From positions 959,042 through 1,023,041 of the forward strand of contig OZ252212.1 in the NCBI GenBank assembly GCA_965248955.1: a DNA stretch of 64,000 nucleotides, written 5' to 3'. This DNA comes from Dehalococcoidia bacterium (GTDB lineage: Bacteria > Chloroflexota > Dehalococcoidia > Lucifugimonadales > QGNO01). Below are positions 4,316 through 49,841 of this stretch, piece after piece. Below the pieces are notes generated by a model. The model made no database searches. It saw nothing but the letters and a program-made list of their open reading frames with translations, and was not told the origin of the DNA. Position numbers and translations under genes: made by a program. The stretch's first letter is position 1, and every line of letters begins with the position of its first letter.

Positions 4316-4452
4316 GACTCCACCTGAGAAGGTTCGAACCGCTGATCAAAGCCCAGACTGCATACTAGTTGTCGATCCGCGTATACTTGGCTGCCGCATC
4401 CAAATCGACCGCCCACGAGTACCGCAGTTTTTCGTTGCGATCAATTCGTTAA
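4316..4452 (-). repeat. Dispersed repeat family, copy 1 (long form, ~135 nt)
   Basis: Plus strand reads ccacctgagaaggttcgaacc ... gtcgatccgc-loop-gcatccaaatcgac cgcccacgagtaccgcagtttttcg. A 37-nt stretch is identical to copy 2 in inverted orientation. It lies directly 3' of the agmatinase-family stop codon. Confidence 0.85.
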
Positions 4453-7600: not shown

Positions 7601-7883
7601 CCCTGCCTGATGTACGGTACACTCTGGCCCACCAGTTTATGCCTAAAGCCATAAAGCACTCGAACTCGTCCGCTGCGTTCACTCCAGCTTTCGCATTTCG
7701 CAGCTGGCATACTATTCGCGGAAGCCGCCGTCATTCGAGTTCTTCTCTGTATTCACACGGCGTAAACCGACTATCCGGCTGGCCTACTACGAGGAGTAGG
7801 GCGGCCCCGTCTACTGACTGTCGATCAGCGCCTCAATCCGCTCCAGTATGTCGGTCATTCGGGCAACTCCGTGTCGGATGTAC

Positions 7884-9193: not shown

Positions 9194-9355
9194 GCCTTCA
9201 GCGAGCAGGACATGGCTGCGATGAAGCGGCTGCGGGCGGCCTTCTGCCCCGATGCAGGCTTCAACCCCGGCAATATTTTCCCTGACGAGGCTCAGCCGCA
9301 CCGGGAGTCGGAATTACATAAGCCCGTGCCCCAGGCCTCTGGGATGTATGTCTAG
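9194..9355 (+). pseudogene. C-terminal fragment of an FAD-linked oxidase (GlcD-like) gene
   Basis: MKRLRAAFCPDAGFNPGNIFP is the typical C-terminal tail of FAD-binding oxidases. It is fused in frame to the DUF262 fragment. Confidence 0.45.
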
Positions 9356-9399
9356 CGCCCGGATGGAACGGCAATTTCGGATTTCACCAGGAGAGAAAC

Positions 9400-10314
9400 A
9401 TGAGCAACTTTGAGAAATTGCAGGACCGCCTGGCAGCGGGGGAGACGATCTTGATGGACGGGGGTATGGGCTCGGAGTTCGAGAGGCGGGGGCTGGCAAG
9501 CCCCACCACGTGGTCGGGCGGTCCGATGCTCACCTATCCCGAGTTGGTGAGGGATATTCATCAGGAATACATAGAAGCGGGCGCCGAGATTATCATCACA
9601 AACACCTTTGGCACAGGGCGTGACATGCTGGAAGAGGGCGGCCTCGAGCACAAGGTAGCCGAGGCCAACAAGCTGGGAATCGAAGCGGCGGTACAGGCAA
9701 GGAGAAACGCCGGGACAGAGGACTCGGTGGTCATTGCGGCCTCCGTATCTACGATGGCTCCCAAGGAACACGCGGAAGTTCCGGTGCCCTATGAGAGAGC
9801 TCTAGAGACCTACCGGGAGCAGCTGGGAGAGCTGGCCAAAGGCGGCCCAGACGTGGCGGTGGGCGAGATGTTGGTCCGGATATCAGACGCGCTTGCGGTG
9901 ATAGAAGCGGCAGCGGAGTTGGGTCTCCCGGTGTGGGTCGGGCTCTCCCTGATCCGGGATGGAGACGGGCTTTACCTGGGCATCCAAGACAGGCATGGAA
10001 GCGAGACCCTTCAAGACGCCATGGACGCCATCAAGGACAAGGACATCGCATCGGTATTCATAATGCACACGCCGGTGGACGACACGGGGCCCGGGCTGGA
10101 GATAGTCAAGAAGAATTGGGCGGGAACCTTCGGCGCCTACGCCCATTTCCCCGGCCACGGCGGCCCAACCCCCAAGGCAAATGCCCTGGACCCACAGCAG
10201 TACCTGGAATACGCCAAGGGGTGGAGTGAGCAGGGGGCGCGAATAATTGGAGGGTGCTGCGGCACGAGACCCGACCACATCCGGGCACTCAGGGAGTGGT
10301 TGTCCGGCTCTTAG
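9400..10314 (+). CDS. mmuM: Homocysteine S-methyltransferase
   Basis: 304-aa ORF with LMDGGMGSE near the N-terminus and the zinc-binding GGCCGT near the C-terminus. Confidence 0.85.
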   Translation: MSNFEKLQDRLAAGETILMDGGMGSEFERRGLASPTTWSGGPMLTYPELVRDIHQEYIEAGAEIIITNTFGTGRDMLEEGGLEHKVAEANKLGIEAAVQARRNAGTEDSVVIAASVSTMAPKEHAEVPVPYERALETYREQLGELAKGGPDVAVGEMLVRISDALAVIEAAAELGLPVWVGLSLIRDGDGLYLGIQDRHGSETLQDAMDAIKDKDIASVFIMHTPVDDTGPGLEIVKKNWAGTFGAYAHFPGHGGPTPKANALDPQQYLEYAKGWSEQGARIIGGCCGTRPDHIRALREWLSGS

Positions 10315-10345
10315 CCCGGAGTCCGCCAACCTTCCGTATAACATC

Positions 10346-10492: not shown

Positions 10493-10704
10493 CTGCGATT
10501 ATCCCACCCGGGCTTCCCAAGCTCGGGCCTGACCTCAAATGGGACCGGCGCAATGCCCTCAACGGGTATTGGTTCACGTGGATTCCTGCTGCGACCTGGC
10601 CACTCCTCGTTGCTACAATGGCATTGCAAGCTATAAAGTGGTTCTGTCTACCGTCAAAATAGGCCCACCCAACTGGACAAAATCAAGAACCTTCATCCGT
10701 CAGG

Positions 10705-10835
10705 CACAATCGACACAAAAAACTGCGGTACTCGTGGGCGGTCGATTTGGATGCAATCAGGTAATGTTAGGGGATCGACGAATGGTTGTGACACCTCGGC
10801 CCTAATCACCCGTTCGAGCCTTCTCCAGTGGGTTG
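10705..10835 (+). repeat. Dispersed repeat family, copy 2 (long form, inverted relative to copy 1)
   Basis: cacaatcgacacaaaaaactgcggtactcgtgggcggtcgatttggatgc-loop-ggatcgac...cccgttcgagccttctccagtgg. It has the same architecture as copy 1, with a different hairpin loop. Confidence 0.85.
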
Positions 10836-10916
10836 GCCTGGGACGGCCTTCTCCGAGCAGGTGAGCCCCTGCTCAGAGAAGAGATCGAAAGCTGATCAGA
10901 GCGTCCTCATCCCCCA

Positions 10917-11161
10917 TCAGTGAGTAACCGTCATCGCGCCTCCAAGGGTCTCGCCACGATGCTCCGGACGATAGTACGAATAGACCTGGGAGACGACCTC
11001 TTTGGCCCGGACCGGGTACTTGGCCCGCGCCTGGAACCCGAATGAGACCGTCTCGCCCGGCATCATGTCCTCGATGTAGAGGATCACCTTCCGACCCGCG
11101 ATTTCGAATCGCTTGAGGCTCGCGGCCGTCATCGACAGAGCGCGCACTATCGCCCCAGACG
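10917..11161 (-). pseudogene. C-terminal fragment of a bacterial alpha-2-macroglobulin-family gene
   Basis: LKRFEIAGRKVILYIEDMMPGETVSFGFQARAKYPVRAKEVVSQVYSYYRPEHRGE matches the receptor-binding-type C-terminal domain. No upstream domains are present. Confidence 0.55.
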
Positions 11162-11585
11162 CCCGCAGCTTCGCAGTTCGAGTGACAAGGGTTCGGTGAC
11201 GGCACGGCTGGCAATTGCAATGTCGTATGCCAGACGAATCCCGCCAAGCCGGAAAGACCGATATGTGTGCTCCGGTCAGCAGGAAGGTTGTCAGGTAAGT
11301 CCGGTCACGATCTGTCCCGACACCACCCTCGCACACCTGTGAGGGAACGTTTTCTTGGCTCGAAACGTATTATCAAGTATGGGCTCGTTCGAAGGTGTCA
11401 AGAAGTCGCCGCAGTGGGTGCAGAGGAACATCGCGATGGGCTTCGTTGCTATCGGGGAACTTTTCCCTGTTCCGGTGCGTCTTACTCGTTGCAGGCTCAC
11501 ATTTTGGGCGGGACAATAAATGACGCACCAGGACGAGGCCATCCAGAGGCATTGCGATTCCAGATAGAGGAAGACGGTTTACACG

Positions 11586-12668: not shown

Positions 12669-13844
12669 ATGGGTCCAACTCTGCCGAAGGATACTCAGTT
12701 CTATTTCCCTCCCGAGCTCACCTGCCTGGAGGGGATAGGCCATCTGGAGCCTGAAGAAACGGTGGCAGCGGTGGAGGTACATAACGGACGGTGGGGGTTG
12801 TCCGGCCACTCTCTGCAGGGTAACCGTTACCTCATCACCATTGAGGCGCCCGGTCTCCGTCTCGAGCCTGCGGGCTACGTGGCCGTGGTCTTCTCGAGCA
12901 AGACCCGCCATCGAGTGCGGGGCGTCGACTTCTATATTGGCGACGCGGAGGCGCCAGACTGCGATACTAGCCCAGGGGTTGTGGAACCTGCCGCCCGCGA
13001 GGCGCTGAGGAACATGGCCAAGGACCCCATGGCCCGTATTGCGGAGCAAGTCCCCGGATTTGGCGGGGCCTTTCGGGATTCGGACCAGAAGGTCGTGTAC
13101 ATCTACCTTCAGGATGCCTCCCTGAAAGAGGAGGCGGAGCGCGCTCTAGAGGAGGAGTTTGGCTCCGATTTCCTCGCGGGCCGCGAGGTCCAGGTCCTGA
13201 AGGGCGACTACAGCATGGACCACCTGAATGCTTGGTATAGGGCTCTGAGTGGTGCCATATCTCAGGTCCCAGGCATCGTGTACACCGACCTGGACGAGGG
13301 GAAGAACCGCATCGAGATCGTCATGTACCCACGGCGCGGGGGGCGCGAGGAGATGGAGGCTGCCATAGCGACGGTGGACGTCCCAAGGGGAGCCATCCTC
13401 ATCGAGGTCGGATGTGAGGGCAAATGGCCCCGTGACCTTGGGGAGCCTCCGGAGGAGGCGTTCCTCCAGGCCATCGAATACTCGCTGGAGGTGGTGTCCC
13501 AGGCCCCTTACGGAGAGACGGTGGAGATGAAGCTAACCTTGCGGAACGTCAGTGATGGGCCGGTGAGCTTTTATCTCGGGGGGTCGCCCGCCTATGACTT
13601 CGTGGTCTCGACGGCTGACGAAGAGTTGGTATGGCACTGGAAGTGCGCCAAGTTGACCCTCTTGATGCTGGGTATCAAGACCCTGGAACCTGGTGAAGAG
13701 TTGGGATTCGTTGGTGAGTGGGAACAGATAGACAACCGGGGGGAGCCCGTTCCCCCTGGCACATACCTGTTGCGTGCTGTGTTGAATTTGGAATCGCCGG
13801 AGAAGCTCGTAACCGAGGTCCAGAAGGTGGAGGTGGTCCAGTGA
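12669..13844 (+). CDS. Hypothetical protein with C-terminal BsuPI-like (protease-inhibitor fold) domain
   Basis: The C-terminal ~100 aa (LTLRNVSDGPVSFYLGGSPAYDFVV...LEPGEE...PPGTYLL) fit the BsuPI pattern. The N-terminal start is uncertain. Confidence 0.55.
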   Translation: MGPTLPKDTQFYFPPELTCLEGIGHLEPEETVAAVEVHNGRWGLSGHSLQGNRYLITIEAPGLRLEPAGYVAVVFSSKTRHRVRGVDFYIGDAEAPDCDTSPGVVEPAAREALRNMAKDPMARIAEQVPGFGGAFRDSDQKVVYIYLQDASLKEEAERALEEEFGSDFLAGREVQVLKGDYSMDHLNAWYRALSGAISQVPGIVYTDLDEGKNRIEIVMYPRRGGREEMEAAIATVDVPRGAILIEVGCEGKWPRDLGEPPEEAFLQAIEYSLEVVSQAPYGETVEMKLTLRNVSDGPVSFYLGGSPAYDFVVSTADEELVWHWKCAKLTLLMLGIKTLEPGEELGFVGEWEQIDNRGEPVPPGTYLLRAVLNLESPEKLVTEVQKVEVVQ

Positions 13845-14029
13845 GATGCATCGTCCTCATTGGGCCGCTGGCCATTCTCCTGTTCCTCGTGGCTGCCTGC
13901 TCCAATGGGACGCCATCGGCTCCTGATGCACCGCCGCCTTCGGAAGAGGCCACGCCAACGGTCGCGCCGACCTCGACGGTCATCTCAGGTCCACCAGACT
14001 GGATTCGAACCGTGGCTTCGACTGGTTAG
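13841..14029 (+). pseudogene. Truncated lipoprotein gene (signal peptide plus ~40 aa only)
   Basis: The GTG start overlaps the upstream stop (GTGA). Signal peptide with lipobox LFLVAAC is followed by a short TP-rich stretch. The frame then runs straight into repeat copy 3 (ccaccagactggattcgaacc) and terminates. Confidence 0.4.
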
Positions 14030-14181
14030 GCGCGCCTGCCTTACCGCGGCCGGAGGCTGGCTCCCGTGGACTCTTAGTCAATGGTGCCGTCCGCCGGGGG
14101 GGTGCTTCCTACTACGTACTGGCGTCAGTCCCACCAACTATGAGTAGCGCAGTTTTACGTGTCTTTTGTGTATTGTGAATG
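13988..14181 (-). repeat. Dispersed repeat family, copy 3 (long, diverged, ~190 nt)
   Basis: Outer box ccaccagactggattcgaacc and inner core cccaccaactatgagtagcgcagttttacgtgtcttttgtgtattgtgaatg. The right flank matches copy 11. Confidence 0.7.
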
Positions 14182-14200
14182 TTTTAAATGTGGTGCTGGC

Positions 14201-14228
14201 TTTACTGCAGAGTTTTCGTTGCGATTAC
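14201..14228 (-). repeat. Dispersed repeat family, copy 3b (core-only fragment)
   Basis: tttactgcagagttttcgttgcgatta matches the copy 1 core and flank ccgcagtttttcgttgcgatca. Confidence 0.5.
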
Positions 14229-14239
14229 TTCTTCGCTAT

Positions 14240-14352
14240 GCAGACTCCCCCTTACATCACAAACCGACTGGCTGGGAGATTCAGCTTCATTTCTACCCGA
14301 AATCTTCAGATCGACCGTCCAAGAGTAGCTCAGTTTATTGTGTCGATTGAGA
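14240..14352 (-). repeat. Dispersed repeat family, copy 4
   Basis: aaccgactggct...atcttcagatcgaccgtccaagagtagctcagtttattgtgtcgattgagaaatgggg. The right flank gtcgattgagaaatggggatggtgtat is shared with copies 7 and 10, next to a recombinase 3' remnant. Confidence 0.7.
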
Positions 14353-14629
14353 AATGGGGATGGTGTATCTTGGCCTCTTCATCCACTGGTGAAAGTAGGC
14401 TTTTTCAGCCACCTGCTGATGGCCGTGTGATTGGCCAGCCTCTTATTCACATCATACGTGCTTGGCCCCGATTCTGGCGAGTGAGATAGGAACGCCAAAC
14501 CGATAGGGAAGGGACCGACGTGTCGGCGACTCGATGGTCCCCTATGAGGGGGTGCTTCTATAGTCTGCAATACGGTACGTGTAGGCACAAACCCCCGCCA
14601 GTATCTTGCACTCTCATCCTGCAGATAAG

Positions 14630-16633
14630 ATGATAGTTCCGGCAGAACGTATGATATTTGCATCCGACATCAGCAAAGGCTACTCAACCAGGACACTGTT
14701 CAGTGGGCTCACATTGAGCTTATCCACTGGGGACCGTATTGCGCTGGTAGGCCCAAACGGCTCCGGGAAGACCACCCTCCTGGACGTTCTGGCAGGCGAT
14801 ATCGCCCCCGACACAGGGAAGGTATCCAAACAGCGAAACGTAACTATTGGCTATCTTAAGCAGGAACCCGGTCTTTTTGCCGGTAAGTCTCTGCTCCAGG
14901 AAGTATTGGACGCCGCCTCCGAAGTGAATGCACTGGTGGACGAGATTATCGCTGCACAGGAGGCTCTGTCAGCGGAATCCGACCCTGCCCAACAGGGCCA
15001 TCTGATGGGTCGACTCAGCAGGCTTGACATGGCGTTGGAGGCCGCTGGCGGAGCGGATCGCGAGCACGAGGCCAAGGCGATCCTCTCAGGCCTCGGTTTC
15101 AAGCAGAGGGACTTTCTCCGGCCCATGAGCGAGTTCAGCGGTGGCTGGGTCATGCGGGCAAGCCTTGCCAGGATTCTGTTCAGGAAGCCCAACCTGTTGC
15201 TCCTTGACGAGCCAACTAACCACCTTGACCTTGATGCAAACCTGTGGTTTGAGAAGTACCTGGCCTCCTTTCAGGGCGGTGTGCTAGTCACATCTCACGA
15301 CCGCACTTTTCTGAACCAGACCGCAACCAGGGTTCTTGCCATTGAACCGGACGAGGTGGTGCTTCACAGGGGCAACTATGACGATTACCTGGTTGCACGC
15401 GAGCGCGCACTTCAGGTCAAGCAGGCTGCCTCCGCCAGGCAGGAGCGCGAGATCCAAAAGCAAATGCAATTCATAGATCGTTTTCGCTCTAAGGCTAGAA
15501 AAGCCAGCCAGGTGCAAAGCCGTTTGAAGCAACTTAAGAAGATGGAGATCATCAGGTTGCCAAGGGCCACCAAGAAGGTTCGCTACTCGTTCCCGAAACC
15601 CCCGCGCAGCGGTTCCGATGTCATATCGCTGATCAACGTAAGCAAGTCCTACGGAGATAACGTGGTGTACCGTGGAATGAATCTCACGCTTTCACGCGGA
15701 GACCGTGTTGCGTTGGTAGGGCCGAACGGCGCCGGCAAGTCCACGCTACTGAAGATACTCGCAGGCGTCATTCCAATTGATAAGGGCGAAAGAAAGACCG
15801 GTCACAACGTGATCACGACCTATTACGCGCAGCACGTGCTTGAACTCCTCAACCCGAACAATACAATCATTGAGGAGTTGCAACAGTCGGCGCCAATGGA
15901 ATCGGAGCAGAATCTGCGCACTACTCTCGGTGGCTTCCTGTTCAGCGACGATGATGTAAATAAGCCTATTGCCGTGCTGTCCGGCGGTGAAAAGGCCCGG
16001 GTGGCCTTGGCCAAACTGCTACTCCAGCCTAGCAACCTGCTCCTCATGGATGAACCTACCAACCACCTTGATATCGCTTCCAGGGAGATCCTCTCGGACG
16101 CCCTCGGCGATTATCAGGGGACTATATGTTTCATAACCCACGATCGGACTTTAATAAGCCAGGTTGCAAACAAGATTGTAGAGATAGATGGCGGTCGACC
16201 GACTGTTTTCCCTGGGAGCTACGACAGTTATCTCTACCAAAAGCAAACTGAGACCAATAAGAGAGACACCAATTCAACGGCCAACGGCGGCCCCGCCGAC
16301 GTTTTGGAACAAGCTCCGGCTACGAGCCGTAACGGCAATTCAGTCAGCCCCAAGGAACAGCAGCGCCGGTCGCTTAGCAAAGAGGCCCGCAAACTCGCGG
16401 TCCGGATAGAGAATATATACGTTTCCCTCACTGACTATGAGAACCGGATAGCAAAGTTGGAGACCATGTTCTCCAACCCAGGCCAGTTTAATGAGCCGGC
16501 TCAGATTGCTGCCTCAGGAGAGCAATATCGTGTGCTCAAAGAGGAGGCGGAATCGCTCTGGGAAGAGTGGGAGAGATTGTCGTTGGAAGCAGAAACCATC
16601 GGCGTCAAGCTGACAGAATTGAAAGCCGGCTAG
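14630..16633 (+). CDS. ABC-F family ATPase (two ABC domains, no transmembrane domain)
   Basis: Two Walker A sites ([18 protein letters not shown]), two signature motifs (FSGGW, LSGGEK) and a C-terminal coiled coil. The start is ambiguous between ATG 14630 and ATG 14651; the ORF track uses TTG 14606. Confidence 0.9.
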
Positions 16634-16654
16634 CCCCGTGCCGACGGTGTCGCT

Positions 16655-20697: not shown

Positions 20698-21093
20698 TTG
20701 GCAAGTTGGCGAAGCTCTCTTGTGATGGCGGGGTTGACTGCGGCGGGCTGTAGCCTATTTGAACAGGACCGGGAGCCTTCTCCGGCTCCGACGGATGTAC
20801 CTACGCCACAGCTCACAGCTGATGTGCAGGGAGAGACCACACCCGAATCTGCGGAGGGGCTGGCTCTTCCTCGTGCAGCTCAGTATCAGTTCGTGGCCTT
20901 AGTGCCCGTCAGCGTTGGAGGAGCGCGCAAAACGTACCGAGACTTAGGGTGCACGCGATGCTCCAATGTGCTAGCAGATAGCCCATACCAAGAGTTTGTG
21001 CTAATTGGCGACCGCCTCTATGACGAGAGAAAGCCGCATGCCGAACGTGAGTTGGGAATATGGAGGGCAATTTGTATAAGGCGGCGCACATGA
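20698..21093 (+). CDS. Small hypothetical lipoprotein
   Basis: Lipobox LTAAGC. Its stop overlaps the ATG of the downstream giant gene (ATGA at 21090-21093), which suggests translational coupling. Confidence 0.5.
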   Translation: MASWRSSLVMAGLTAAGCSLFEQDREPSPAPTDVPTPQLTADVQGETTPESAEGLALPRAAQYQFVALVPVSVGGARKTYRDLGCTRCSNVLADSPYQEFVLIGDRLYDERKPHAERELGIWRAICIRRRT

Positions 21094-24000
21094 CACGATG
21101 GTTGGCTTACGGGATATTGACCGTTGCGCTCGCATGTCTTCTTGGGGGCTGCAACGGGGACTCAGGCGCACCTGAGCCAACCCCTACCGGAGCTGAGTCG
21201 AGGGGGCTCACGGCCACGACGGAACCGAGCTCCACACTGACGCCAGAACCAACCCCCACGGTGGAACCAACTCCCACACCGACGCCAGAACCAACCCCCA
21301 CGGTGGAACCAACTCCCACACCGACGCCAGAACCAACCCCCACGCCTACTCCAGAGCCTACGCTCAAACCCATCGATCCGAATCTATCCATCCTGGACCA
21401 GTTCCCAGCGATAGAGCGTAGCTGTCTGTTACTCGATATGGAAGAGAACCGCTTGTACCGGATCTTCAACCAGGAATCCAGTGCGACGGCCGAAGAATTC
21501 GAGGCCATAGCAGGTTGCATAAGCAGGGACACCGTGACCGCCATGTATATCGGTGCGCTTGCGGAGGGGTTGAGTGTGAGCGGCGAGACGTCGGCCTGTG
21601 CGGTGGGCCGACTGGAGAAGATGGACAAGGACCTCCTAATGCTAGCGTCGATAAACTCCGAGCATGAAACCGCGGTTTACCTTGGCCTTGGTTATGACGA
21701 TGAGGCGCTGCAAGACTTGGGGGCGTCTATTTCGTTGTCTGTGCTCCTCTGCATGGACAAGGAAGAGTGGACGGCCCTCAGCCCATGGGGTCTCAATGTC
21801 GATGATGTGAGCATAGATGCACTCAGATGCTTCCTGAACGAATTGGGGCCGCGGGGCCTCTACGAGTTGGATGCTGCTACCGAGGGCGCAACGCCATCGC
21901 TTGAGCTGTTCTCAGCGGCGGGGAGTTGCGGGATAGACCTGGAGTCGTTGCTGTCAAAACAAACGAGGCCAGAACCCGCACCGACGGTGAGGCCAGCAGT
22001 TCCCGTGCCAACCGCAACCCCCGTGCCGACGGCTGCACCACAGAGGGAACCCGAGGCGACTCCCACCGCAGCGCCAGCGGCTACGGCAGTACCAGAGCCC
22101 ACAGCTGCTCCGACCGCCACTCCAACGGACACGCCCGAGCCGACTCCTACGGACACGCCTACGCCCGCCGCAGTTGATAGGGCCGCGCTGGTGGCGCTCT
22201 ACGAAGCGACGGACGGAGCTAACTGGACGAGCAACCACAACTGGCTGAGCGACAGGCCAATCGGAGAATGGCGCGGCGTAATCGCTGACCTCAGCGGGCG
22301 CGTCACCGAGCTGCTCCTCTCTGAGAACCAGTTGAGCGGCGAGATACCGGCCGAGTTGGGCAACCTCGCCAACCTTCAATACCTGTTCCTCTCTAAGAAC
22401 CAGTTGAGCGGCGAGATACCGGCCGAGCTGGGCAACCTCGCCAACCTTCAATACCTGTTCCTCTCTAAGAACCAGTTGAGCGGCGAGATACCGGCCGAGC
22501 TGGGCAACCTCGCCAACCTTCAATACCTGTTCCTCTCTAAGAACCAGTTGAGCGGCGAGATACCGGCCGAGCTGGGCAACCTCGCCAACCTTCATTCCCT
22601 GCTCCTCTCTGAGAACCAGTTGACCAGGTGCCTACCCGAAGGGTTGCGAGAGATACAGGAAAGTGATTTCAACATCATGTCCATTCGTCCGCCCTTGTGC
22701 GGAACAACCCCGGCGAGCATGATCGCGGCGGGCGGCACAATCGCAGTCCTCCAGTCTCTTGAGTCACTGTCGGGCGCTCATCGGAGAGATGGCACAGAGT
22801 TTGAGTGGTCGCAGGTGTCGGGTCCGCCCGTTGAACTCCTCAATGCGAATGCTGAGTATGCTCGGTTCACGGCCCCGGTGGTCGTTGAAGACACCATCTT
22901 GGTGTTTGTGCTGAAAGCCGAATATCAGAACGACGTCACGGTGATCGATACTGTGCCGATACGCGTCGTTCCCATGAGAACGGAGAGGGTGTTGGCTGCT
23001 TTGGTGGACTTTCTTGACGTGGACCCCAGAGAAAGACCCTTCACCAGAGAAGATATCGTCAAGCTCCTTGAGGCTAATGACGATTCATTGAGCAATTTCA
23101 TTGCTCAGACCTCGCGCAATTTGGTGAGCGTTGACTTTGACGTCCTGGACTGGATCACTGTCGACAAGAACAGGACGGACTACCCGTTAGGTGGTGGCAC
23201 CGTGGTGAAGGACGTCGTCAGCAGGATGTCCGACTTTGCCGACTTGAGTCAGTATGACAAGGTGATGCCGTTAATCTTTCCTCTCGAAAAAGGATATCCC
23301 GGATGCCAGGCTTACCTGTATAAGGACCACTGGAACACGCCAAACGGCCGCTTCCGATTGGGTGCCTTGTGGCTGAGCGGCTATGACATGGGTTGTGTAC
23401 GAAAAGGTAGGATTGCACACGAGTTTGGACACACATTCGCGTTCGTACACTCATATGTGATTCTCTGCCACAGAGAGCCGCCCTTGCCGGCGAGCATGAC
23501 TGACCCCACTGACAAGAACAGCTCCTGCTATACCGTATATGCCGGGGAGAAAGAGGAAGCTAGCATTATCGCCAACCAAGACTTTGACATGCTGGGCGGC
23601 GACCATCGATACGAGAGCTTCTTTCCGGTTCACTTCCACGCAACATGGCAGGATCGAGCCGGATGGTTGGCCGAGGCCCAGGTCGTTGCTGCGAACAGCG
23701 CCGGCGAGTACTGGCTCACCGCTTTGGAATCCCTTACTCCCACACCGAAGGCTGTGAGGATATTCTTGGGAACCGATCACGAGGGAAACTCCCTATACTA
23801 TCTGATCCAACATCGTGAGTTCAGCCCGTGGTCCATGGGTAGCCAGGCGGGGTCTTCGTGCCAAGCCGATGTGAGGCTTGAAGCCTCCAACATATTTAAG
23901 CGTGGGCAATTCAATACTTACTTTTTCAATGGGTATATCGATGGCGTGAGAGTGGATTCCATATCACGCCCGGGTAAGCCGTTATGGGACCCTTACCGTG

Positions 24001-24425
24001 GCATTCGTATCGAAATACTTGACTGCATAGATACTCCAATAGGTGAGGTTGTCAGGATGCAAGTCAACTTTTCCAAACTGGATATTGACCCGCGGGTAGT
24101 CGCCATTTTCGATACTGCCGGAAAAGCGACGATAAAGATGACAAACAACGGCAGCGTACCGATTGACGTTGGCTCTGCCTCGATCGGGGGCAGACATCCG
24201 ACCGCATTTGTCGTTGATTCTGACGAATGCAGTGATTCCACACTGAAATCGAAAGCATCGTGCGAGATCATCCTGTCGCATGTCCCAACCGACACTGAGG
24301 ACGATGAACCCAGCAATCACGGTGTGTTGAAGATCCCGAACAATGACGCATTGGCACCCGAGATGACGGTGAGTCTATTTGCGGCGAATGCAAACCGATC
24401 ACAGCTTCCGCCGACCCGGAAGTGA
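21090..24425 (+). CDS. Large surface lipoprotein: Thr/Pro repeats, leucine-rich repeats, C-terminal HExxH metalloprotease-like domain
   Basis: Signal peptide with lipobox LLGGC and EPTPTVEPTPTPTP tandem repeats. NQLSGEIPAELGNLANLQYLFLSK occurs four times (plant-type LRR). IAHEFGHTFAF lies in the C-terminal region. I placed the start at ATG 21090; the ORF track uses 21060. Confidence 0.85.
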   Translation: MTRWLAYGILTVALACLLGGCNGDSGAPEPTPTGAESRGLTATTEPSSTLTPEPTPTVEPTPTPTPEPTPTVEPTPTPTPEPTPTPTPEPTLKPIDPNLSILDQFPAIERSCLLLDMEENRLYRIFNQESSATAEEFEAIAGCISRDTVTAMYIGALAEGLSVSGETSACAVGRLEKMDKDLLMLASINSEHETAVYLGLGYDDEALQDLGASISLSVLLCMDKEEWTALSPWGLNVDDVSIDALRCFLNELGPRGLYELDAATEGATPSLELFSAAGSCGIDLESLLSKQTRPEPAPTVRPAVPVPTATPVPTAAPQREPEATPTAAPAATAVPEPTAAPTATPTDTPEPTPTDTPTPAAVDRAALVALYEATDGANWTSNHNWLSDRPIGEWRGVIADLSGRVTELLLSENQLSGEIPAELGNLANLQYLFLSKNQLSGEIPAELGNLANLQYLFLSKNQLSGEIPAELGNLANLQYLFLSKNQLSGEIPAELGNLANLHSLLLSENQLTRCLPEGLREIQESDFNIMSIRPPLCGTTPASMIAAGGTIAVLQSLESLSGAHRRDGTEFEWSQVSGPPVELLNANAEYARFTAPVVVEDTILVFVLKAEYQNDVTVIDTVPIRVVPMRTERVLAALVDFLDVDPRERPFTREDIVKLLEANDDSLSNFIAQTSRNLVSVDFDVLDWITVDKNRTDYPLGGGTVVKDVVSRMSDFADLSQYDKVMPLIFPLEKGYPGCQAYLYKDHWNTPNGRFRLGALWLSGYDMGCVRKGRIAHEFGHTFAFVHSYVILCHREPPLPASMTDPTDKNSSCYTVYAGEKEEASIIANQDFDMLGGDHRYESFFPVHFHATWQDRAGWLAEAQVVAANSAGEYWLTALESLTPTPKAVRIFLGTDHEGNSLYYLIQHREFSPWSMGSQAGSSCQADVRLEASNIFKRGQFNTYFFNGYIDGVRVDSISRPGKPLWDPYRGIRIEILDCIDTPIGEVVRMQVNFSKLDIDPRVVAIFDTAGKATIKMTNNGSVPIDVGSASIGGRHPTAFVVDSDECSDSTLKSKASCEIILSHVPTDTEDDEPSNHGVLKIPNNDALAPEMTVSLFAANANRSQLPPTRK
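21243..21345 (+). repeat. 42-bp tandem repeat (about 2.4 copies) encoding PEPTPTVEPTPTPT
   Basis: ccagaaccaacccccacggtggaaccaactcccacaccgacg is repeated identically at 21243 and 21285, and a partial third copy follows. Confidence 0.9.
22317..22604 (+). repeat. 72-bp tandem repeat, 4 copies (LRR units)
   Basis: Units start at 22317, 22389, 22461 and 22533. Units 2 and 3 are identical over 72/72 nt. Units 1 and 4 differ at a few positions. Confidence 0.95.
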
Positions 24426-24812: not shown

Positions 24813-25244
24813 GCCGAGTTCATGGCCGAGGAGCCGGTGAAGCCCAAGGGCCGGAGCCGCAATGGAGGCGTCTTTGCTCGAACTCCATGTCGCTGTGGCC
24901 ACTACGAGCCCTCCAACCCTGGCGGGCTGGAGGCTCGTGGGCCAAGCCGGGTACTGTGTGACTCGCGCCTGTTTTGTTACAGCGAGACCTCCCATCGAAA
25001 AGTTCGCAGTACAGTACACGTAGGCCCGCCAAGGAAGGCTCGAACCATCATGCGGTCCGACGTTGAGGTGGATTACCGGACATCGTGAAGAATGAGATGT
25101 TCTAGGGGCTCGACTGGAATCGGGTGTTACAGAGGCATGGAGCGTAGCGAGCACTAAGACCGACGGTATTGCCCTCACAGCGGTTGTATCGCTAGCCGTG
25201 ACCTTCACTTGCCCAAGGCTCTAGCGCTACCCATCGCTAGCTAC

Positions 25245-25285
25245 GCTCACCGCCCACGAGTACCGCATTTTCTGTTTCTATTGCC
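25245..25285 (-). repeat. Dispersed repeat family, copy 5 (core; long form about 25024-25290)
   Basis: ctcaccgcccacgagtaccgcattttctgtttctattgcc. It is preceded by a long-range stem (gagcgtagc...gctacgctc) and an outer box ccaaggaaggctcgaacc at about 25030. Confidence 0.75.
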
Positions 25286-25530
25286 TCTCACCCATGAGCA
25301 GTGGAGAGTAACATACGTGCGCATTGCGGGAGGAAGGCTGTGCTGGGGCAGCAAGCTGGATGGTCATGAAGCCTCGCCCGGAGAGGATTATAAGTTCACG
25401 TCCGTCAGCAGCAGCCGCTCTCACGGGTGCGTTTTGCGGGACGATGGCGCGGTCCAGTGTTGGCGATGGCCATAAACGAGGGAGCTGGAGTCGCTCTGGT
25501 TGGACCATGACATCGACAACGGTATTCAAG

Positions 25531-25570
25531 TTCACCGCCCACGAGCACCGCAATCTTCTGTGTCGTTGCC
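25531..25570 (-). repeat. Dispersed repeat family, copy 6 (core)
   Basis: ttcaccgcccacgagcaccgcaatcttctgtgtcgttgcc. Confidence 0.7.
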
Positions 25571-25783
25571 CTCAACACCGGATACCGGGTGGGCGGCGAC
25601 ACCGAGCGGACACGATTACCAGCGCTACCCACGCCGTAGACGAACTGGTGCGCAACACGTCTTATGAGTTCCGCGTGAGCGCATACGCGGACGGCGACAC
25701 CTACAAAGACGAGTAGGGTGGCGCAGAGGTATCCGCAACGACCGGAGTCTGAAGCTAAGCCCTAGAGAAGCGACTCTGCCCAT

Positions 25784-26007
25784 TCAGGGAATTAGCCGCC
25801 AACTCCAGTTCCACCACTCCCAGCGGCATCCAAGTCCACCGCCCAAGAGTACCTCAGTTTTTGTAGTCGATTGAGAAATGGGGATGGTGTATGTCAGAAC
25901 GGCCTCTTCTCCCACCACTTCGATGCCCTCCACGAAGTTGCGGATGAGCGCCTTGTGCTCAGGGAATGTCCCTTCCTTTAGAAACTCACGGAAGTCCGCC
26001 ACGTACC
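25784..26007 (-). pseudogene. C-terminal fragment of a large serine recombinase gene (copy A)
   Basis: YVADFREFLKEGTFPEHKALIRNFVEGIEVVGEEAVLTYTIP is the typical extreme C-terminus of large serine recombinases. No catalytic or zinc-ribbon part is present. Confidence 0.55.
25826..25875 (-). repeat. Dispersed repeat family, copy 7 (core)
   Basis: gcatccaagtccaccgcccaagagtacctcagtttttgtagtcgattgag. It overlaps the 3' tail of the recombinase fragment ORF. Confidence 0.75.
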
Positions 26008-26022
26008 TATTCACTAGTGGTG

Positions 26023-26332
26023 GAGCGTCCTGAGTGTGTTGGTGAAAGGATCCAGCACCTGTGTTTGGACAAGGGGTACGACAATCCACCGGGCCATGGT
26101 GGCTCACGGGTACCTGGGACACGTCCGGCGCATAGGGGAGGAGAAACTGGACTCTCAGAGTGTGAAGCGCCATCCGGCGCGGCGGTGGGTTGTGGAGTGC
26201 ACCTTGGCCTGGTTATCCAAATGCCGGGCCATATTGGTGCGCTACGACAAGAGGGTATCCAACTACATCGGCCTGATTCAATTGGCGTGTGCCCTTTTCT
26301 GGTACCGCCGCCAGTGGCAACTGAAGTGTTGA
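26023..26332 (+). mobile_element. 3' fragment of an IS5-family DDE transposase gene, frameshifted
   Basis: HLCLDKGYDNP in one frame is followed by GYLGHVRRIGEEKL...ARRWVVECTLAWLSKCRAILVRYDKRVSNYIGLIQLACALFWYRR in the next. It starts exactly where direct repeat A ends. Confidence 0.75.
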
Positions 26333-26341
26333 GATAGTATT

Positions 26342-27376
26342 TTAGTTCGTAGCAGGACGCCCAGAGACGTCCACCTGGCCGTAGATATCCTCTAGGGCCG
26401 CAAATATCTCGGCTTGAATGCCATCTGCGCCTTCACTGTACAGGTCTTTGGGCCCGCCTATCTCGTTGTTCACCCCCAGGTAAGACTGCGACATCTCAGC
26501 AAAGAACTCCCGTCCGCCTTCCACCCTCATTCCAAATGCGTTCGGCCATAACCCGGCTTCCCGGGCCCTGCCATACAGCCCCAGCCACACTTGGCGAGTC
26601 TCATCATCGAATCCAAGGTTCTCAATGGCGTGGGCCCATTCGTGCACGGTAATATCCTCCGCCCAGAAACGGGTCTGGTCTTCAACCAAATCAAGCAGAT
26701 TTTCCTCTGAGGTCACGGTGGTGGTTTGCTCCGGAACGCCGCCTGCTCCCCGCACCCTGAACGAGTCGTACGGATTGCCGTTGAGGTCCAGCCTCCCTCG
26801 AAGGAACGCCAATTCCGGGATTTCGGTGATATAGCCGTCCTTGGGGATTATTGCCAGTGAGGCTCCCGCTTCCGCCATCCGCTGGGCGATGTCCGGCCGG
26901 TGGGACAGCATTGTGCGGACGATGTCGGCAGCGACCTCCAAGGCCTCTGGCGCCACCGCCCCGGAGGCCTTGACCCGAATGCCATCCACATCTACAACCT
27001 GTGTGTAGTACTGCCCAGGAGTAGCCGTAGGCGCGGAAGCAGGCGTGGGAGTTGGAGTGACAGTCGGAGTCGGTGTTGCCGTAGCTGTAGGGTCAGGAGT
27101 GTTGGTTGGTGTAGGTGTTGCAGTAGGCGTAGGAGTAGGAGTAACAGTTGGCGTCGGTGTTGCCGTAGCTGTAGGGTCAGGAGTGTTGGTTGGTGTAGGT
27201 GTTGCAGTAGGCGTAAGAGAAGAAGGAAGAGATGCAGGTATAGTTAGAGTTACGTCAGGTGTCGGTACAGGGACTTCAGACTCCCTACTTTGGTAACAGG
27301 CAGCCGATGCTGCTAACGCGAGCAGTGCTAGCGCAGTGTTCCTTATCCCAGCTCCGCTCAACCAGCGGGGGTTCAT
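26342..27376 (-). CDS. Secreted lipoprotein with Thr/Pro linker and HExxH zinc-metallopeptidase-like domain
   Basis: I placed the start at MNPRWLSG. Lipobox ASAAC, a duplicated TP-rich linker, and VHEWAHAIEN in the C-terminal domain. Confidence 0.7.
   Translation of the reverse strand: MNPRWLSGAGIRNTALALLALAASAACYQSRESEVPVPTPDVTLTIPASLPSSLTPTATPTPTNTPDPTATATPTPTVTPTPTPTATPTPTNTPDPTATATPTPTVTPTPTPASAPTATPGQYYTQVVDVDGIRVKASGAVAPEALEVAADIVRTMLSHRPDIAQRMAEAGASLAIIPKDGYITEIPELAFLRGRLDLNGNPYDSFRVRGAGGVPEQTTTVTSEENLLDLVEDQTRFWAEDITVHEWAHAIENLGFDDETRQVWLGLYGRAREAGLWPNAFGMRVEGGREFFAEMSQSYLGVNNEIGGPKDLYSEGADGIQAEIFAALEDIYGQVDVSGRPATN
27045..27220. repeat. 84-bp tandem duplication inside the Thr/Pro linker coding region
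   Basis: gtcggtgttgccgtagctgtagggtcaggagtgttggttggtgtaggtgttgcagtaggcgta occurs at 27069 and again at 27153. Confidence 0.85.
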
Positions 27377-27484
27377 TTTTACCTCGTATAAAACTAAGGT
27401 CACGTCCCATAGAGTGGTGTAAGAGTACGTCATCCTGTTGATATCGTCTAGGCCGCTGCCTCTGCGAGTTCAGCTCTGGGTAGA

Positions 27485-28374
27485 GGAGCGTAGCGAGCAC
27501 TAAGACCGACGGTATTGCCCTCACAGCGGTTGTATCGCTGGCCGTGACCTTCATGCCCAAGGCCCTAGCGCTACCCATCGCTAGCTACGCTCACCACCCA
27601 CGAGTACCGCATTTTCTGTTTCTATTGCCTCTCACCCATGAGCAGTGGAGAGTACCATACGTGCGCATTGCGGGAGGAAGGCACTGTGCTGTGCTAGGGC
27701 AGCAAGCTGGATGGTCATCAAGCCTCGCCCGGAGAGGATTATAAGTTCACGTCCGTCAGCAGCGGCCGCTCTCACGGGTGCGTTTTGCGGGACGATGACG
27801 CGGTCCAGTGTTGGCGATGGCCATAAACGAGGGAGCAGGAGTCGCTCTGGTTGGACCATGACATCGACAACGGTATTCAAGTTCACCGCCCACGAGCACC
27901 GCAATCTTCTGTGTCGTTGCCCTCAACACCGGATACCGGGTGGGCGGCGACACCGAGCGGACACGATTACCAGCGCTACCCACGCCGTAGACGAACTGGT
28001 GTGCAACACGTCTTATGAGTTCCGCGTGAGCGCATACGCGGACGGCAACACCTACAAAGACGAGTAGGGTGGCGCAGAGGTATCCGCAACGACCGGAGTC
28101 TGAAGCTAAGCCCTAGAGAAGCGACTCTGCCCATTCAGGGGATTAGCCGCCAACTTCAGTTCCACCACTCCCAGCGGCATCCAAGTCCACCGCCCAAGAG
28201 TACCTCAGTTTTTGTAGTCGATTGAGAAATGGGTATGGTGTATGTCAGAACGGCCTCTTCTCCCACCACTTCGATGCCCTCCACGAAGTTGCGGATGAGC
28301 GCCTTGTGCTCAGGGAACGTCCCTTCCTGTAGAAACTCACGGAAGTCCGCCACTTACCTATGCACTAGTAGGTG
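27485..28374. repeat. Direct repeat B (~890 bp), partner of 25139-26022
   Basis: See repeat A. It contains family copies 8-10 (cores at 27590-27629, 27882-27921 and 28177-28226). Confidence 0.9.
28156..28353 (-). pseudogene. C-terminal fragment of a large serine recombinase gene (copy B)
   Basis: MADFREFLQEGTFPEHKALIRNFVEGIEVVGEEAVLTYTIP. A stop codon immediately upstream replaces the Tyr codon seen in copy A. Confidence 0.55.
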
Positions 28375-29112: not shown

Positions 29113-30276
29113 CTACTTGCACAGGCAGGAGGCAGCGTCTAGGTCGAAACGGCTAAGGCGGAGGAACGAGATGTCATGGCCCGTCTCGCCCCGTGTGGCC
29201 AAATCGGCCATGATCTCGCCCACAACGCTACAGAACTTGAAACCGTGGCCAGAGAACCCTGCTGCAAAGAAGACATTCGGAGATCCAGGTAAAGCATCAA
29301 TTATAAAGTGCCCGTCGGGTGTATTCGTGAACATGCAGGGCTTCAGGGATACCGTCGGCCCGTTTGCATCAGGAAAGTAGCGGACCAAAGCCTTCCGCAA
29401 CACTGCCTCGTCCTCATCCCGGCAGTCTCTCTCCAGGCCATCGGCGGTCGTCACCTCATTCAAGTGGTGGAACCTGCCGATCTTGAACCCCGGGATGCCG
29501 AATACAGGGAAGGAATAGTATTGCCCTTCCTCGAACTCGCCGATCACCACCGGGCAGTTTCCAAGCGCAAAGAGATGCGGGCGTAGCGGCTGGAACCAGC
29601 CGAGGACCTGACGTTCAGGTACCAGCAGGTGGCTCAACGACGGCAATAGCGGCCCCGCCCAGGCGCCGGCCGTAATGACCAGCGCCCCTGCCTCGTATAG
29701 TCCGCGGTTAGTCTCTACTCTCACGGCGCCCCCAGCGCTGCTCCATTCCCGCACCGCCTCATGGGCCCTCACTTCGCCGCCGCGCTCTAGTGCAGCGAAG
29801 ACGTGGTTGACTATGCACCGCTCCGACAGCACGAACCCGCCGTCAGGCTGGTATATCCCCATCCAGTTCTCCGGGAACCGGAATCCCGGGAAGCGCCGAG
29901 TCAGCTCGGCACTGGTGAGCGCCTCGTGCGGCAGGTCATGCTCGCGGCAGGACCGCAGGGATCCGGTAAAGACCCTGCCTTCCTCATGACTGGTGTCCAC
30001 CGAGCCGGTGATGTACAACAGCTTCTCGCCGCTCGCCTCCTCCAGCTCGCGCCACCGCTCGTACGAGCGCCGCAGGAGCGGCACGTAGGACGAGTCCTCG
30101 TAGTAGGCCAGCCGGATAATGCGGTTTATGCCGTGCGACGATCCGGAGTCGTTCGGTATACTGAAACGTTCAAGGCCTAGCACGCGCATGCCGCGACTTG
30201 CGAGCTCGTACACGGTGGCGGAGCCCATTCCCCCGACACCAATGACTATTACATCGTATGTACCGCTTGTCCTCAT
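29113..30276 (-). CDS. Monomeric sarcosine oxidase / N-methyl-L-tryptophan oxidase family flavoenzyme
   Basis: YDVIVIGVGGMGSA (FAD fold), CMFTNTPDGHFIID (covalent-flavin Cys context) and GFSGHGFKF. Confidence 0.85.
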   Translation of the reverse strand: MRTSGTYDVIVIGVGGMGSATVYELASRGMRVLGLERFSIPNDSGSSHGINRIIRLAYYEDSSYVPLLRRSYERWRELEEASGEKLLYITGSVDTSHEEGRVFTGSLRSCREHDLPHEALTSAELTRRFPGFRFPENWMGIYQPDGGFVLSERCIVNHVFAALERGGEVRAHEAVREWSSAGGAVRVETNRGLYEAGALVITAGAWAGPLLPSLSHLLVPERQVLGWFQPLRPHLFALGNCPVVIGEFEEGQYYSFPVFGIPGFKIGRFHHLNEVTTADGLERDCRDEDEAVLRKALVRYFPDANGPTVSLKPCMFTNTPDGHFIIDALPGSPNVFFAAGFSGHGFKFCSVVGEIMADLATRGETGHDISFLRLSRFDLDAASCLCK

Positions 30277-47516: not shown

Positions 47517-47664
47517 CTGACACTGATTTTAGGTGTGAAGTACGGGAGTGTCAACATTCAATCCACCATGCACATCAAGACCGTACTTCCTTTGAAATGG
47601 CACTTCAGGTACAATGAAAGTACAGCTTCAATATTCAGTGGCAGATAAACCATTGGAGAAGTTT

Positions 47665-49518: not shown

Positions 49519-49538
49519 TCCACGTGGATTGACGATAT

Positions 49539-49579
49539 AAGAGAAGGCGGCCCCATCATTAATGGGGCCGCCTTCTCTT
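49539..49579. terminator. Bidirectional hairpin between convergent ftsH and the 49578..49841 ORF
   Basis: A 17-bp perfect stem aagagaaggcggcccca / tggggccgccttctctt with a 7-nt loop. The T-tracts are weak. The 3' arm overlaps the stop codon of the minus-strand ORF. Confidence 0.55.
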
Positions 49580-49841
49580 ATGGGGACTCGCCATCCTCAC
49601 TGTCAAGGGGCCGTTCCCTGAAATAGAGGCCCCACTTCTGCATAAGCCCCTTAATGCGGGGCTCTCCCAAGCCCGTCAACTCCTTGAAGAACCCTGCTAG
49701 GGCGTGGGCGTGTATGTGCTCTTCAGAGCATACCCAGCTTGCCTCGCTGGGCACCACGTAGACCACGCCGTTCTGGTGTGCGCACTGCACTTCCAGGCGC
49801 TTGCCGGAACGGTCGTGCTTTATAGTCAGGCCGTACGGCAT
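49578..49841 (-). CDS. Hypothetical small protein downstream of fumC
   Basis: 87 aa from ATG (MPYGLTIKHD). It lies immediately after the fumC stop. I recognised no domain. Confidence 0.4.
   Translation of the reverse strand: MPYGLTIKHDRSGKRLEVQCAHQNGVVYVVPSEASWVCSEEHIHAHALAGFFKELTGLGEPRIKGLMQKWGLYFRERPLDSEDGESP

Follow-up and report, generated by a model that had tools for sequence, protein, structure and literature searches.

Between a gene for a BsuPI-domain protein and a gene for an ABC-F protein, the genome of a Dehalococcoidia bacterium carries a foreign block of repeat units (13995..14367, forward strand; 373 bp), at whose left edge a lipoprotein gene breaks off shortly after its signal sequence. 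The stretch of DNA analysed here, called the window, comprises 64,000 nucleotides (nt) (contig OZ252212.1 of assembly GCA_965248955.1, positions 959,042 to 1,023,041 of the forward strand), and coordinates count from its first letter unless another locus is named. An earlier sequence-only reading of the window had described a lipoprotein gene cut off by three stacked repeat copies. The left edge of the block was placed by comparison with the homologous locus of another species (L003; related loci carry such numbers throughout), and the right edge by comparison with L023-L027.

The lipoprotein gene and its relatives

The BsuPI-domain gene (12669..13844, forward) encodes 391 amino acids (aa) and matches Pfam PF12690 at 8.7e-12; a scan of species-representative genomes with its protein led to four Dehalococcoidia loci, and orthologues are found in L003-L006. 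The open reading frame (ORF) that follows (13841..14029, forward) comprises 62 codons, with its stop TAG at 14027-14029. Its start, GTG at 13841-13843, overlaps the TGA of the BsuPI gene at 13842-13844, which agrees with the coupling of the two genes described by the sequence-only reading. The translation runs V/MRCIVLIGPLAILLFLVAAC up to the junction and SNGTPSAPDAPPPSEEATPTVAPTSTVISGPPDWIRTVASTG from there to the stop, or in short (V/M)RCIVLIGPLAILLFLVAAC-SNGTPSAPDAPPPSEEATPTVAPTSTVISGPPDWIRTVASTG. Codons 1-51 are native and comprise signal, lipobox and TP linker, and codons 52-62 are foreign. The lipobox-like LVAAC and the TP-rich linker behind it can be read directly from the translation, as had been noted before, and the signal and linker resemble those of other lipoproteins of the window. 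The final 13 codons traverse CCACCAGACTGGATTCGAACC (13991-14011), the sequence that had been named the outer box of a repeat, so the ORF does read into this box and then stop.

Orthologous loci indicate how the gene once continued. In L004 and L005, a 585-aa lipoprotein is encoded directly after the BsuPI gene, in the same position as the window ORF, which by itself aligns with this protein at 43% over 37 aa (E=4e-7). L003, with 86-90% nt identity to the window, holds the same short ORF, identical through ..TSTVISGP; there it comprises 71 codons, and the residues past ..ISGP are wholly unlike those of the window. About 200 nt beyond, the translated L003 DNA reads ..SAPVNACIYHAPEPTP.., a match to the L004 protein at residues 54-127 (tblastn 72%, 2e-27). 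The L003 insert measures 176 nt and is bracketed by the direct repeat AGGTCCAC (8 bp). When it is taken out together with one AGGTCCAC copy, a single continuous frame results, which aligns with the L004 protein at 55% over 127 aa (E=1e-37, or 6.5e-14 when composition-corrected). Because the L003 frame can be restored in this way and L004 and L005 carry a 585-aa orthologue, the short ORF is not full length; it is a lipoprotein gene cut after codon 51, a truncation that had been proposed before. Within the window, tblastn found no remnant of the remaining ~530 lipoprotein codons. The stump has kept its translational coupling to the BsuPI gene, and its product would be a pre-lipopeptide of 62 residues at most.

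Borders and contents of the block

On the left, the identity between window and L003 runs to AGGTCCAC (13987-13994, forward), which forms the last native bases of the lipoprotein gene, and the sequences are unrelated beyond it; the end of the homology was placed at 13994-13998. With the native sequence ending at 13994, the repeat begins exactly at the truncation point, and this central claim of the sequence-only reading stands. The 216 nt before the junction (13779..13994; L003 9054-9269) are 100% identical in the two species, with the last mismatch at 13778, whereas the kilobase before this tract is only ~80% identical. A tract that stops exactly at the junction would be one of recent recombination or transfer, and argues that the site was recently active. 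On the right, five contigs (L023-L027) with a 90%-identical ABC-F gene align with the window at ~92% nt identity, starting exactly at 14368. To the left of this position they are unrelated to it, with ..GCGGCTCT before the border and CTTGGCCTCTTCATCCAC.. behind it, as against ..GGATGGTGTAT and CTTGGCC.. in the window. The native ABC-F locus (14368..16633, forward) comprises an upstream region (14368-14650) and the gene itself (14651-16633; Pfam ABC_tran at 4.5e-52), and is 95% identical to L021/22 from 14569. A protein of 660 aa, P0085, is 100% identical to the ABC-F product; when the BsuPI and ABC-F products of the window were looked up as exact proteins, no match was obtained.

The two flanks belong to separate loci in the relatives. 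In L003-L005, no ABC-F gene is found within 8 kb downstream of the BsuPI gene, and in L021-L027, the 7 kb upstream of ABC-F hold neither a BsuPI nor a lipoprotein gene. In L021 and L022, the closest relatives of the ABC-F locus (95% nt), ABC-F stands tail-to-tail with an S-methyltransferase gene, 140 nt apart, and the S-methyltransferase gene of the window (9400-10314) lies beyond the BsuPI block from ABC-F. Because the flanks belong to loci that are unlinked in all relatives examined, the block represents a rearrangement junction and not a simple insertion; in keeping with this, neither a target duplication nor inverted ends were found in 13980-14380. The nested or serial insertion at one site that had been suggested conflicts with these flanks, and the short direct duplications envisaged at the junctions are missing from the window, AGGTCCAC being duplicated around the L003 insert instead.

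Other breakpoints were noted in the vicinity. The window regions 9353-10340 (S-methyltransferase) and 14569-16652 (ABC-F) are co-oriented homology islands 4 kb apart, with breakpoints on both sides. An ORF at 10917-11336 (reverse), which ends ..VVSQVYSYYRPEHRGETLGGAMTVTH, resembles the C-terminal fragment of a larger gene; as the synteny with L003 starts at 11341, it marks another breakpoint beside a repeat unit.

The block has a GC content of 0.52 as a whole and of 0.46 in 14100-14367, compared with 0.615 in the BsuPI gene, so the lower GC reported from the sequence is confirmed. Unit 1 opens with the outer box (13990..14015, forward), which encodes PPDWIRT and belongs, as a weak member, to a degenerate family of terminal boxes of ~30 nt. 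The three repeat copies first numbered 3, 3b and 4 are all present in the forward orientation: copy 3, the core of unit 1 (14126..14165), is degenerate (65% to the reference; nhmmer E=2e-3), and 3b (14203..14231) is a partial core, its right half only, with 24/29 identity to the right half of the copy at 4398. Copy 4, the core of unit 3 (14305..14349), is well conserved (nhmmer E=3e-11; family D3/D5). At its right end, the block closes with the 14-nt terminal motif ATGGGGATGGTGTA (14354..14367, reverse), which is the reverse of TACACCATCCCCAT (codons YTIP) and represents a second fixed junction point, 'O1'. The minus strand of 14341-14370 does read RYTIPISQSTQ followed by a stop, which had been taken for the remnant of a recombinase tail; what is left of that remnant is the 14-nt motif, a terminal part of the repeat, and native ABC-F DNA begins at 14368. 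The outer box, in turn, is no exact repeat. For the 21-nt CCACCAGACTGGATTCGAACC, no second copy is found in the window even when 3 mismatches are allowed, and an nhmmer profile built without the outer box recovers it as the top non-training match in the window at only 6.1 bits (E~1 for a blind search). It represents the kind of sequence that follows the SGPP attachment (att) centre in recombinase genes, described below.

The well-conserved repeat is a 45-nt core (..TCCACCGCCCACGAGTACCGCAGTTTTTTGTGTCGATTG), with 11 copies in the window, the partial 3b included, and 14 further copies in the related loci scanned; it is conserved far beyond its surroundings. Among 17 distinct sequences from window and loci, the variable positions fall at every third base, and the synonymous fraction reaches 0.41-0.43 in one complementary frame pair as against 0.17-0.26 in the others. 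These features suggest a possible coding ancestry. As a present-day coding sequence, the core was rejected, as each candidate frame is broken by stops in 3/17 distinct copies. Core and unit were likewise rejected as structured RNA, for which RNAalifold gave -0.3 and -0.6 kcal/mol on the two strands with an unfavourable covariation term and Rfam gave no match. Promoter and terminator signals in the block do not exceed shuffle expectation, and a search of the JGI metagenome collection with the core pattern returned no match.

Three further identifications of parts of the block were discarded. Read in reverse, as GGTTCGAATCCAGTCTGGTGG, the outer box resembles a T-arm with an acceptor end; in the window and at the junctions of 15 related loci, no tRNA or tmRNA fragment was detected by ARAGORN or Rfam. 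The whole unit had been aligned by eye as a decayed inverted recombinase 3' end, and Smith-Waterman scores against shuffles gave z <= 1.3 for 9 units on both strands. Finally, a second tail remnant considered in 14369-14400 (shared GAAGAGGCC) proved to be native ABC-F upstream DNA, present in L023-L027 without a recombinase.

Serine recombinases, their att-like palindrome and related copies

Two recombinase tail fragments on the reverse strand of the window (25876-26010 and 28227-28358) served as protein query and led to 84 clusters of 46-107 aa from Dehalococcoidia/Chloroflexi assemblies. Genomic contexts identify these clusters as the 3' ends, ~100 codons long, of genes that encode Resolvase, Recombinase and Zn_ribbon_recom domains, and the tail genes are accordingly classed, by their predicted domains, as large serine recombinases (LSRs). 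Beside the same sequences in relatives, the recombinase comprises 428 aa in L001 and 430 aa in L018, and pieces of it occur in L002, L007, L009-17, L019 and L020. The otherwise intact recombinases of L001 (6461-6520) and L018 (6993-7001) are split at the same spot (..LEVLSAPHP.. / ..SPRILSLRHREEQL..), in a C4/C5 run, where either a homopolymer sequencing error or a real, possibly programmed, frameshift may be responsible. As a separate observation, recombinases of the family adjoin defence-type genes, namely TIR, ThsB-TIR, BrxC/BrxD-like ATPases with an SNF2 helicase, ParE toxin and N6-methyltransferase/type I restriction pieces (L018 4526-5661 and 9268-12926; L009-L015 8481-13752; L002 1-734 and 6351-6881).

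The LSR tails have the consensus ..KALIRNFVEGIEVVGDEATLTYTIP-MPSDGVTSESASVLDFVQSGPP. Up to GTCCAGTC[AC]GGCCCACC, three independent tails resemble one another; past it, they are unrelated. In L018, L019 and L020, the DNA past the SGPP codons mirrors the DNA before them around a 4-bp centre, with arm identities of 22/24, 20/24 and 19/24, respectively; the corresponding values are 16/24 in L001 and 14/24 at window 10640-10691. Random arms reach 6.1 +/- 2.2, with a maximum of 17 in 20,000 trials. The 3' end of the LSR genes thus carries a palindromic att-like site of ~52 bp with two 24-bp arms and a 4-bp centre (codons ..VLDFVQ-SGPP, GGYCCAC), which displays the dyad symmetry sought in an att site (~40-50 bp, short centre). 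A site of ~52 bp, with two imperfectly symmetric arms and a short centre, is the standard att architecture of serine recombinases.

About half of the tails (~41/84) can be read through SGPP, and their continuations fall into few recurrent classes. These include the F-type (xxTVDTTIFEMWLG.., ~20 tails), the mirror-arm type ([DN][LW]TKSRTF, ~11 tails) and the outer-box type (xx[TA]RT.., or PPxx[TAIV]RT; ~7 tails, with RKARTIM, KKTRT, ERTRT, NETRT and DWTRT); additionally, a few tails have unique continuations. The window ORF ends SGPP-DWIRT and fits the outer-box type, and the boxes at 4319, 10832 (reverse) and 25024 encode the same class (PPEKVRT, PLEKART and PPRKART, respectively). The post-SGPP sequence of P0012, RKARTIMRSGVEVDYRTS (RKARTIMRS..), recurs at window 25014-25085 (21/24 aa, E=6e-9), where another partner stands to its left. 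In L018, a reversed core and then a reversed outer box come after the palindrome. An att-like centre with an F-type arm (..ACCTACCGTCCACTCCGGCCCACC..) was also observed upstream of ABC-F in L021 (6720-6790), and the ABC-F upstream region seems to be a recurrent recombination spot.

The breakpoint in the lipoprotein gene lies at a sequence of the same kind: the native DNA ends with AGGTCCAC, which differs from the att centre AGGCCCAC/CGGCCCAC at one position (7/8 match to AGGCCCAC), a likeness that ~25 of the 65,536 8-mers attain. The first 10 foreign nt, CCAGACTGGA, agree with the consensus of the arms. With the arm position weight matrix (PWM), the outer box scores below threshold, and it was rejected as an ungapped att arm.

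The YTIP motif, TACACCATCCCCAT, constitutes the second fixed junction. At this point 14/84 tails switch into a reversed core, among them P0074, which is only 53% identical to the query, and the YTIP end is joined to unrelated DNA in L001 (position 3765) and to native DNA in the window (14367/14368). No dyad symmetry was found at this junction.

Related copies occur elsewhere in the window. An isolated copy (10640..10836, reverse) consists of the att-like palindrome at 10640-10691 (centre CCCA), followed by a 172-nt unit (10665-10836) that holds core and outer box and has 16-nt inverted repeats at its ends. An isolated unit between convergent genes (4319..4441, forward) comprises an outer box (4319-4352) and a core (4398-4441). 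A three-core array (25024..25892, forward) is opened by an outer box (25024-25058), which lies at an att-like centre, and closed by the YTIP motif, and it is joined to the recombinase tail fragment 25876-26010. Its part 25139-25892 has a 98% copy at 27485-28243, with a tail fragment of its own (28227-28358). A sister strain (L001) matches window 25878-28242 at 99.4%, with the homology breaking at both ends exactly at YTIP, and in it an intact recombinase adjoins this 2.4-kb segment, in a setting unlike that of the window. The comparison shows what would be the same kind of modular exchange at other arrays.

Some features of this region stand by themselves. The window segments 25139-26023 and 27485-28374, each a three-core array plus recombinase tail fragment, are 98%-identical direct copies with a period of 2351 bp, and between them lie an IS5-type transposase fragment (26036-26332) and a TP-linker lipoprotein gene (26342-27433, reverse). 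In 25209-25716, an RCC1-like frame (..HGCVLRDDGAVQCW) and a fibronectin-III-like frame (..YEFRVSAYADGDTYKDE) end before successive cores, which looks as if 3' fragments of genes had been captured together with the cores of this array. Tandem repeats of 72 nt (22239-22670) encode leucine-rich repeats in a 1121-aa lipoprotein (21060-24425), and others of 42 nt (21214-21368 and 27027-27194) encode TP-rich linkers in two lipoprotein genes. A perfect 20-nt hairpin (49537-49581) lies just after the gene 47614-49518, and a perfect 24-nt inverted repeat (7772-7795 / 30095-30118) has its arms 22 kb apart.

Origin of the block and comparison with known systems

The explanation that we favour, with rather more confidence than doubt, is that mobile DNA moving together with one LSR family in these Dehalococcoidia left the block 13995-14367 behind as debris. 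It takes as established the truncation, both exact borders, the unlinked flanks, the palindromes at the recombinase 3' ends and the recurrent fixed junctions; beyond these, we infer that an LSR was the enzyme, in what order the events occurred, and that it was rearrangement, and not serial insertion, that brought the three units together. According to this proposal, exchange at the att centre GGYCCAC would give a recombinase tail different continuations at different places. The linker codons ..ISGP of the lipoprotein carry a look-alike of this centre, AGGTCCAC, and an element end consisting of terminal box, spacer and 45-nt core would have been joined there, at a pseudo-att centre. A later event between repeat copies at different loci, either by recombinase action or by ordinary homologous recombination, may then have eliminated the other ~530 codons and joined the stump to an ABC-F upstream region from elsewhere in the genome.

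Several findings weigh against this explanation. No intact recombinase gene is present in the window, which has just two C-terminal fragments at a distance of 11-14 kb; of the recombinase genes in this family, many are broken up into several ORFs and may be inactive. Statistically, the outer box is not established as arm-like, given its PWM score and the 6.1 bits of the box profile, and a profile hidden Markov model of the recombinase tail finds nothing significant in 13995-14400. In the unit 10665-10836, both ends read 'CCCA-arm' inward, which is not a simple integration polarity, and serine-recombinase chemistry does not explain the YTIP junction with its lack of dyad symmetry. Finally, the L003 insert combines 22-nt terminal inverted repeats with its 8-bp direct repeat, which is also the signature of a miniature inverted-repeat transposable element (MITE) driven by a transposase, so that such an element is a serious alternative for the L003 event.

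From the last of these points, an account can be built that we regard as unlikely, in which the units are ordinary MITEs moved by a DDE transposase with 7-8-bp target duplications, GGYCCAC-like sites are preferred or hit by chance, and recombinase tails are frequent victims and not agents. The terminal inverted repeats of the 176-nt L003 insert are 77% complementary (1/2000 shuffles as good) and its removal restores the ORF precisely, the unit 10665-10836 has its 16-nt inverted ends, and transposase genes of the IS3, IS5, IS4 and IS66 types are abundant in the neighbourhoods. However, the 8-mer duplicated in L003 is the recombinase att centre at 7/8, a rare degree of likeness; the junction always falls at the centre of the 52-bp palindrome inside the recombinase gene, with partners from few recurrent classes; no other copy of the L003 insert occurs in any locus fetched; and the block of the window has neither inverted ends nor a duplication. 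It appears still less probable that the locus is the by-product, at a pseudo-site, of a working switch in which the recombinase inverts or swaps a segment of ~125-190 bp between inverted att-type sites and so changes its own C-terminus and the orientation of the core. Both orientations relative to the att centre do exist, with centre, mirror arm, reversed core and reversed box in L018 and at window 10664, and centre, box and core in the opposite sense at 13995, at 25024 and in L004. Both states are found directly after recombinase tails (e.g. P0036/L018 as against P0012), and such a switch would agree with a core much better conserved than its surroundings. Yet no locus was seen in two orientations across strains, the L009-L017 locus has the same arrangement in all nine samples, no recombinase gene lies near the window copies, and the core yielded no promoter-like or structural signal.

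That the join of lipoprotein stump and ABC-F is an assembly chimera at a dispersed repeat is very improbable: the block is rich in repeats and its flanks are unlinked in all relatives, but the left junction recurs in L003, a different species that was assembled independently, the right border falls to the very base on the end motif typical of the repeat, the repeats are shorter than 400 bp, and the occurrence of the 100%-identical ABC-F protein on a 2.0-Mb contig implies a long-read assembly. It is harder still to believe that the 62-codon ORF is a genuine small lipoprotein and that the repeats downstream of it are intergenic sequences of a regulatory or REP-like kind. Translational coupling of the ORF is preserved, and in L003 the ORF is short as well (71 codons), but the residues past ..ISGP are unrelated in the two species, removal of the L003 insert restores a long frame homologous to the 585-aa protein, and the identity of the first 51 codons belongs to the 216-nt recombination tract and is not evidence of selection. 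Returning to LSR-associated debris as the preferred explanation, a bolder extension, which we consider rather doubtful, is that the units of ~125-190 bp are non-autonomous miniature elements or exchangeable end-modules recombined in trans by the LSR, that is, 'serine-recombinase MITEs', with the YTIP junction as part of the same system. If this were true, such units would disperse to pseudo-sites within coding sequence, change the C-terminus of the recombinase and give rise to genome rearrangements in Dehalococcoidia.

In this genome, a surface lipoprotein gene next to a gene with a protease-inhibitor domain (BsuPI) has been destroyed, within a neighbourhood that is a mosaic assembled by recombination at small repeats. 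Gene truncation by mobile-element debris is a common kind of event, and what sets this case apart is how well its junctions are defined. Base-exact junctions and a 52-bp palindrome are now available for an uncharacterised LSR family, as needed for testing of the enzyme.

Among known systems, integrons and CRISPR arrays do not fit the spacing of the repeats or their lack of palindromy. Integron attC sites are recombined by the tyrosine recombinase IntI and are imperfectly palindromic, with only the end boxes conserved; here, no IntI gene was found, the core is non-palindromic and no inverted repeats were found within units. The units resemble MITEs in being small (120-190 bp), lower in GC and dispersed, in disrupting genes and in the inverted ends of the L003 insert and the unit 10665-10836. 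Unlike MITEs, their ends coincide with a recombinase att centre, and no DDE transposase with the same ends was found; terminal inverted repeats together with a target duplication are lacking in 13980-14380 and are found in the different L003 insert.

Within the LSRs, att sites span ~40-50 bp with dyad symmetry around a central dinucleotide, and Tn4451 (TnpX) and Tn5397 (TndX) are LSR transposons that insert at sites resembling their own joint sequence. The multi-targeting LSR clade commonly carries DUF4368, a domain that, in contrast, is not recorded in the present family, whose activity is putative. To our knowledge, miniature derivatives of ~125-190 bp with a conserved core are not a described feature of multi-targeting LSRs or LSR transposons. 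Multi-targeting LSRs insert at several sites (Durrant et al. 2022, PMC10083194). The present family resembles them, as it appears to use several target classes, including a pseudo-site in a coding region.

The closest precedent is found in the ssrA islands of Dehalococcoides, which encode DsiB, a serine recombinase of ~540 aa whose gene overlaps attP/attL at its 3' end and whose C-terminus is variable (McMurdie et al. 2011, PMC3146451). The integration target of these islands is the T-loop of the one tmRNA gene; they stack in tandem and are bounded by short direct repeats, and some units have no integrase and are 'cis-mobilizable' (PMC3146451). Shared with them are the host class Dehalococcoidia, an LSR of ~540 aa whose 3' end overlaps the att site with a C-terminus varying with the flank, and the stacking of elements or remnants with short repeats at their bounds, some units having no integrase. 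The ssrA islands are defined by integration into the 3' end of the tmRNA gene, which leaves an ssrA direct repeat of ~20 bp. By contrast, no tRNA or tmRNA lies at any junction here (ARAGORN, window and 15 loci). Targets are multiple (lipoprotein coding region, intergenic DNA and other element ends), and the 52-bp palindrome within the gene end, the conserved 45-nt core and the YTIP junction are features of the present family. A DsiA/RecF-like/ParB/Mom module with embedded tRNA was not seen, no dedicated search having been made, and the neighbours are HTH, TIR, ParE and BrxC/D-type genes. On this comparison, the block would not belong to the ssrA/DsiB islands and is best described as working like a serine-recombinase element junction, and the picture known from Dehalococcoides, of a recombinase gene that overlaps its own att site, is extended beyond the tmRNA target.

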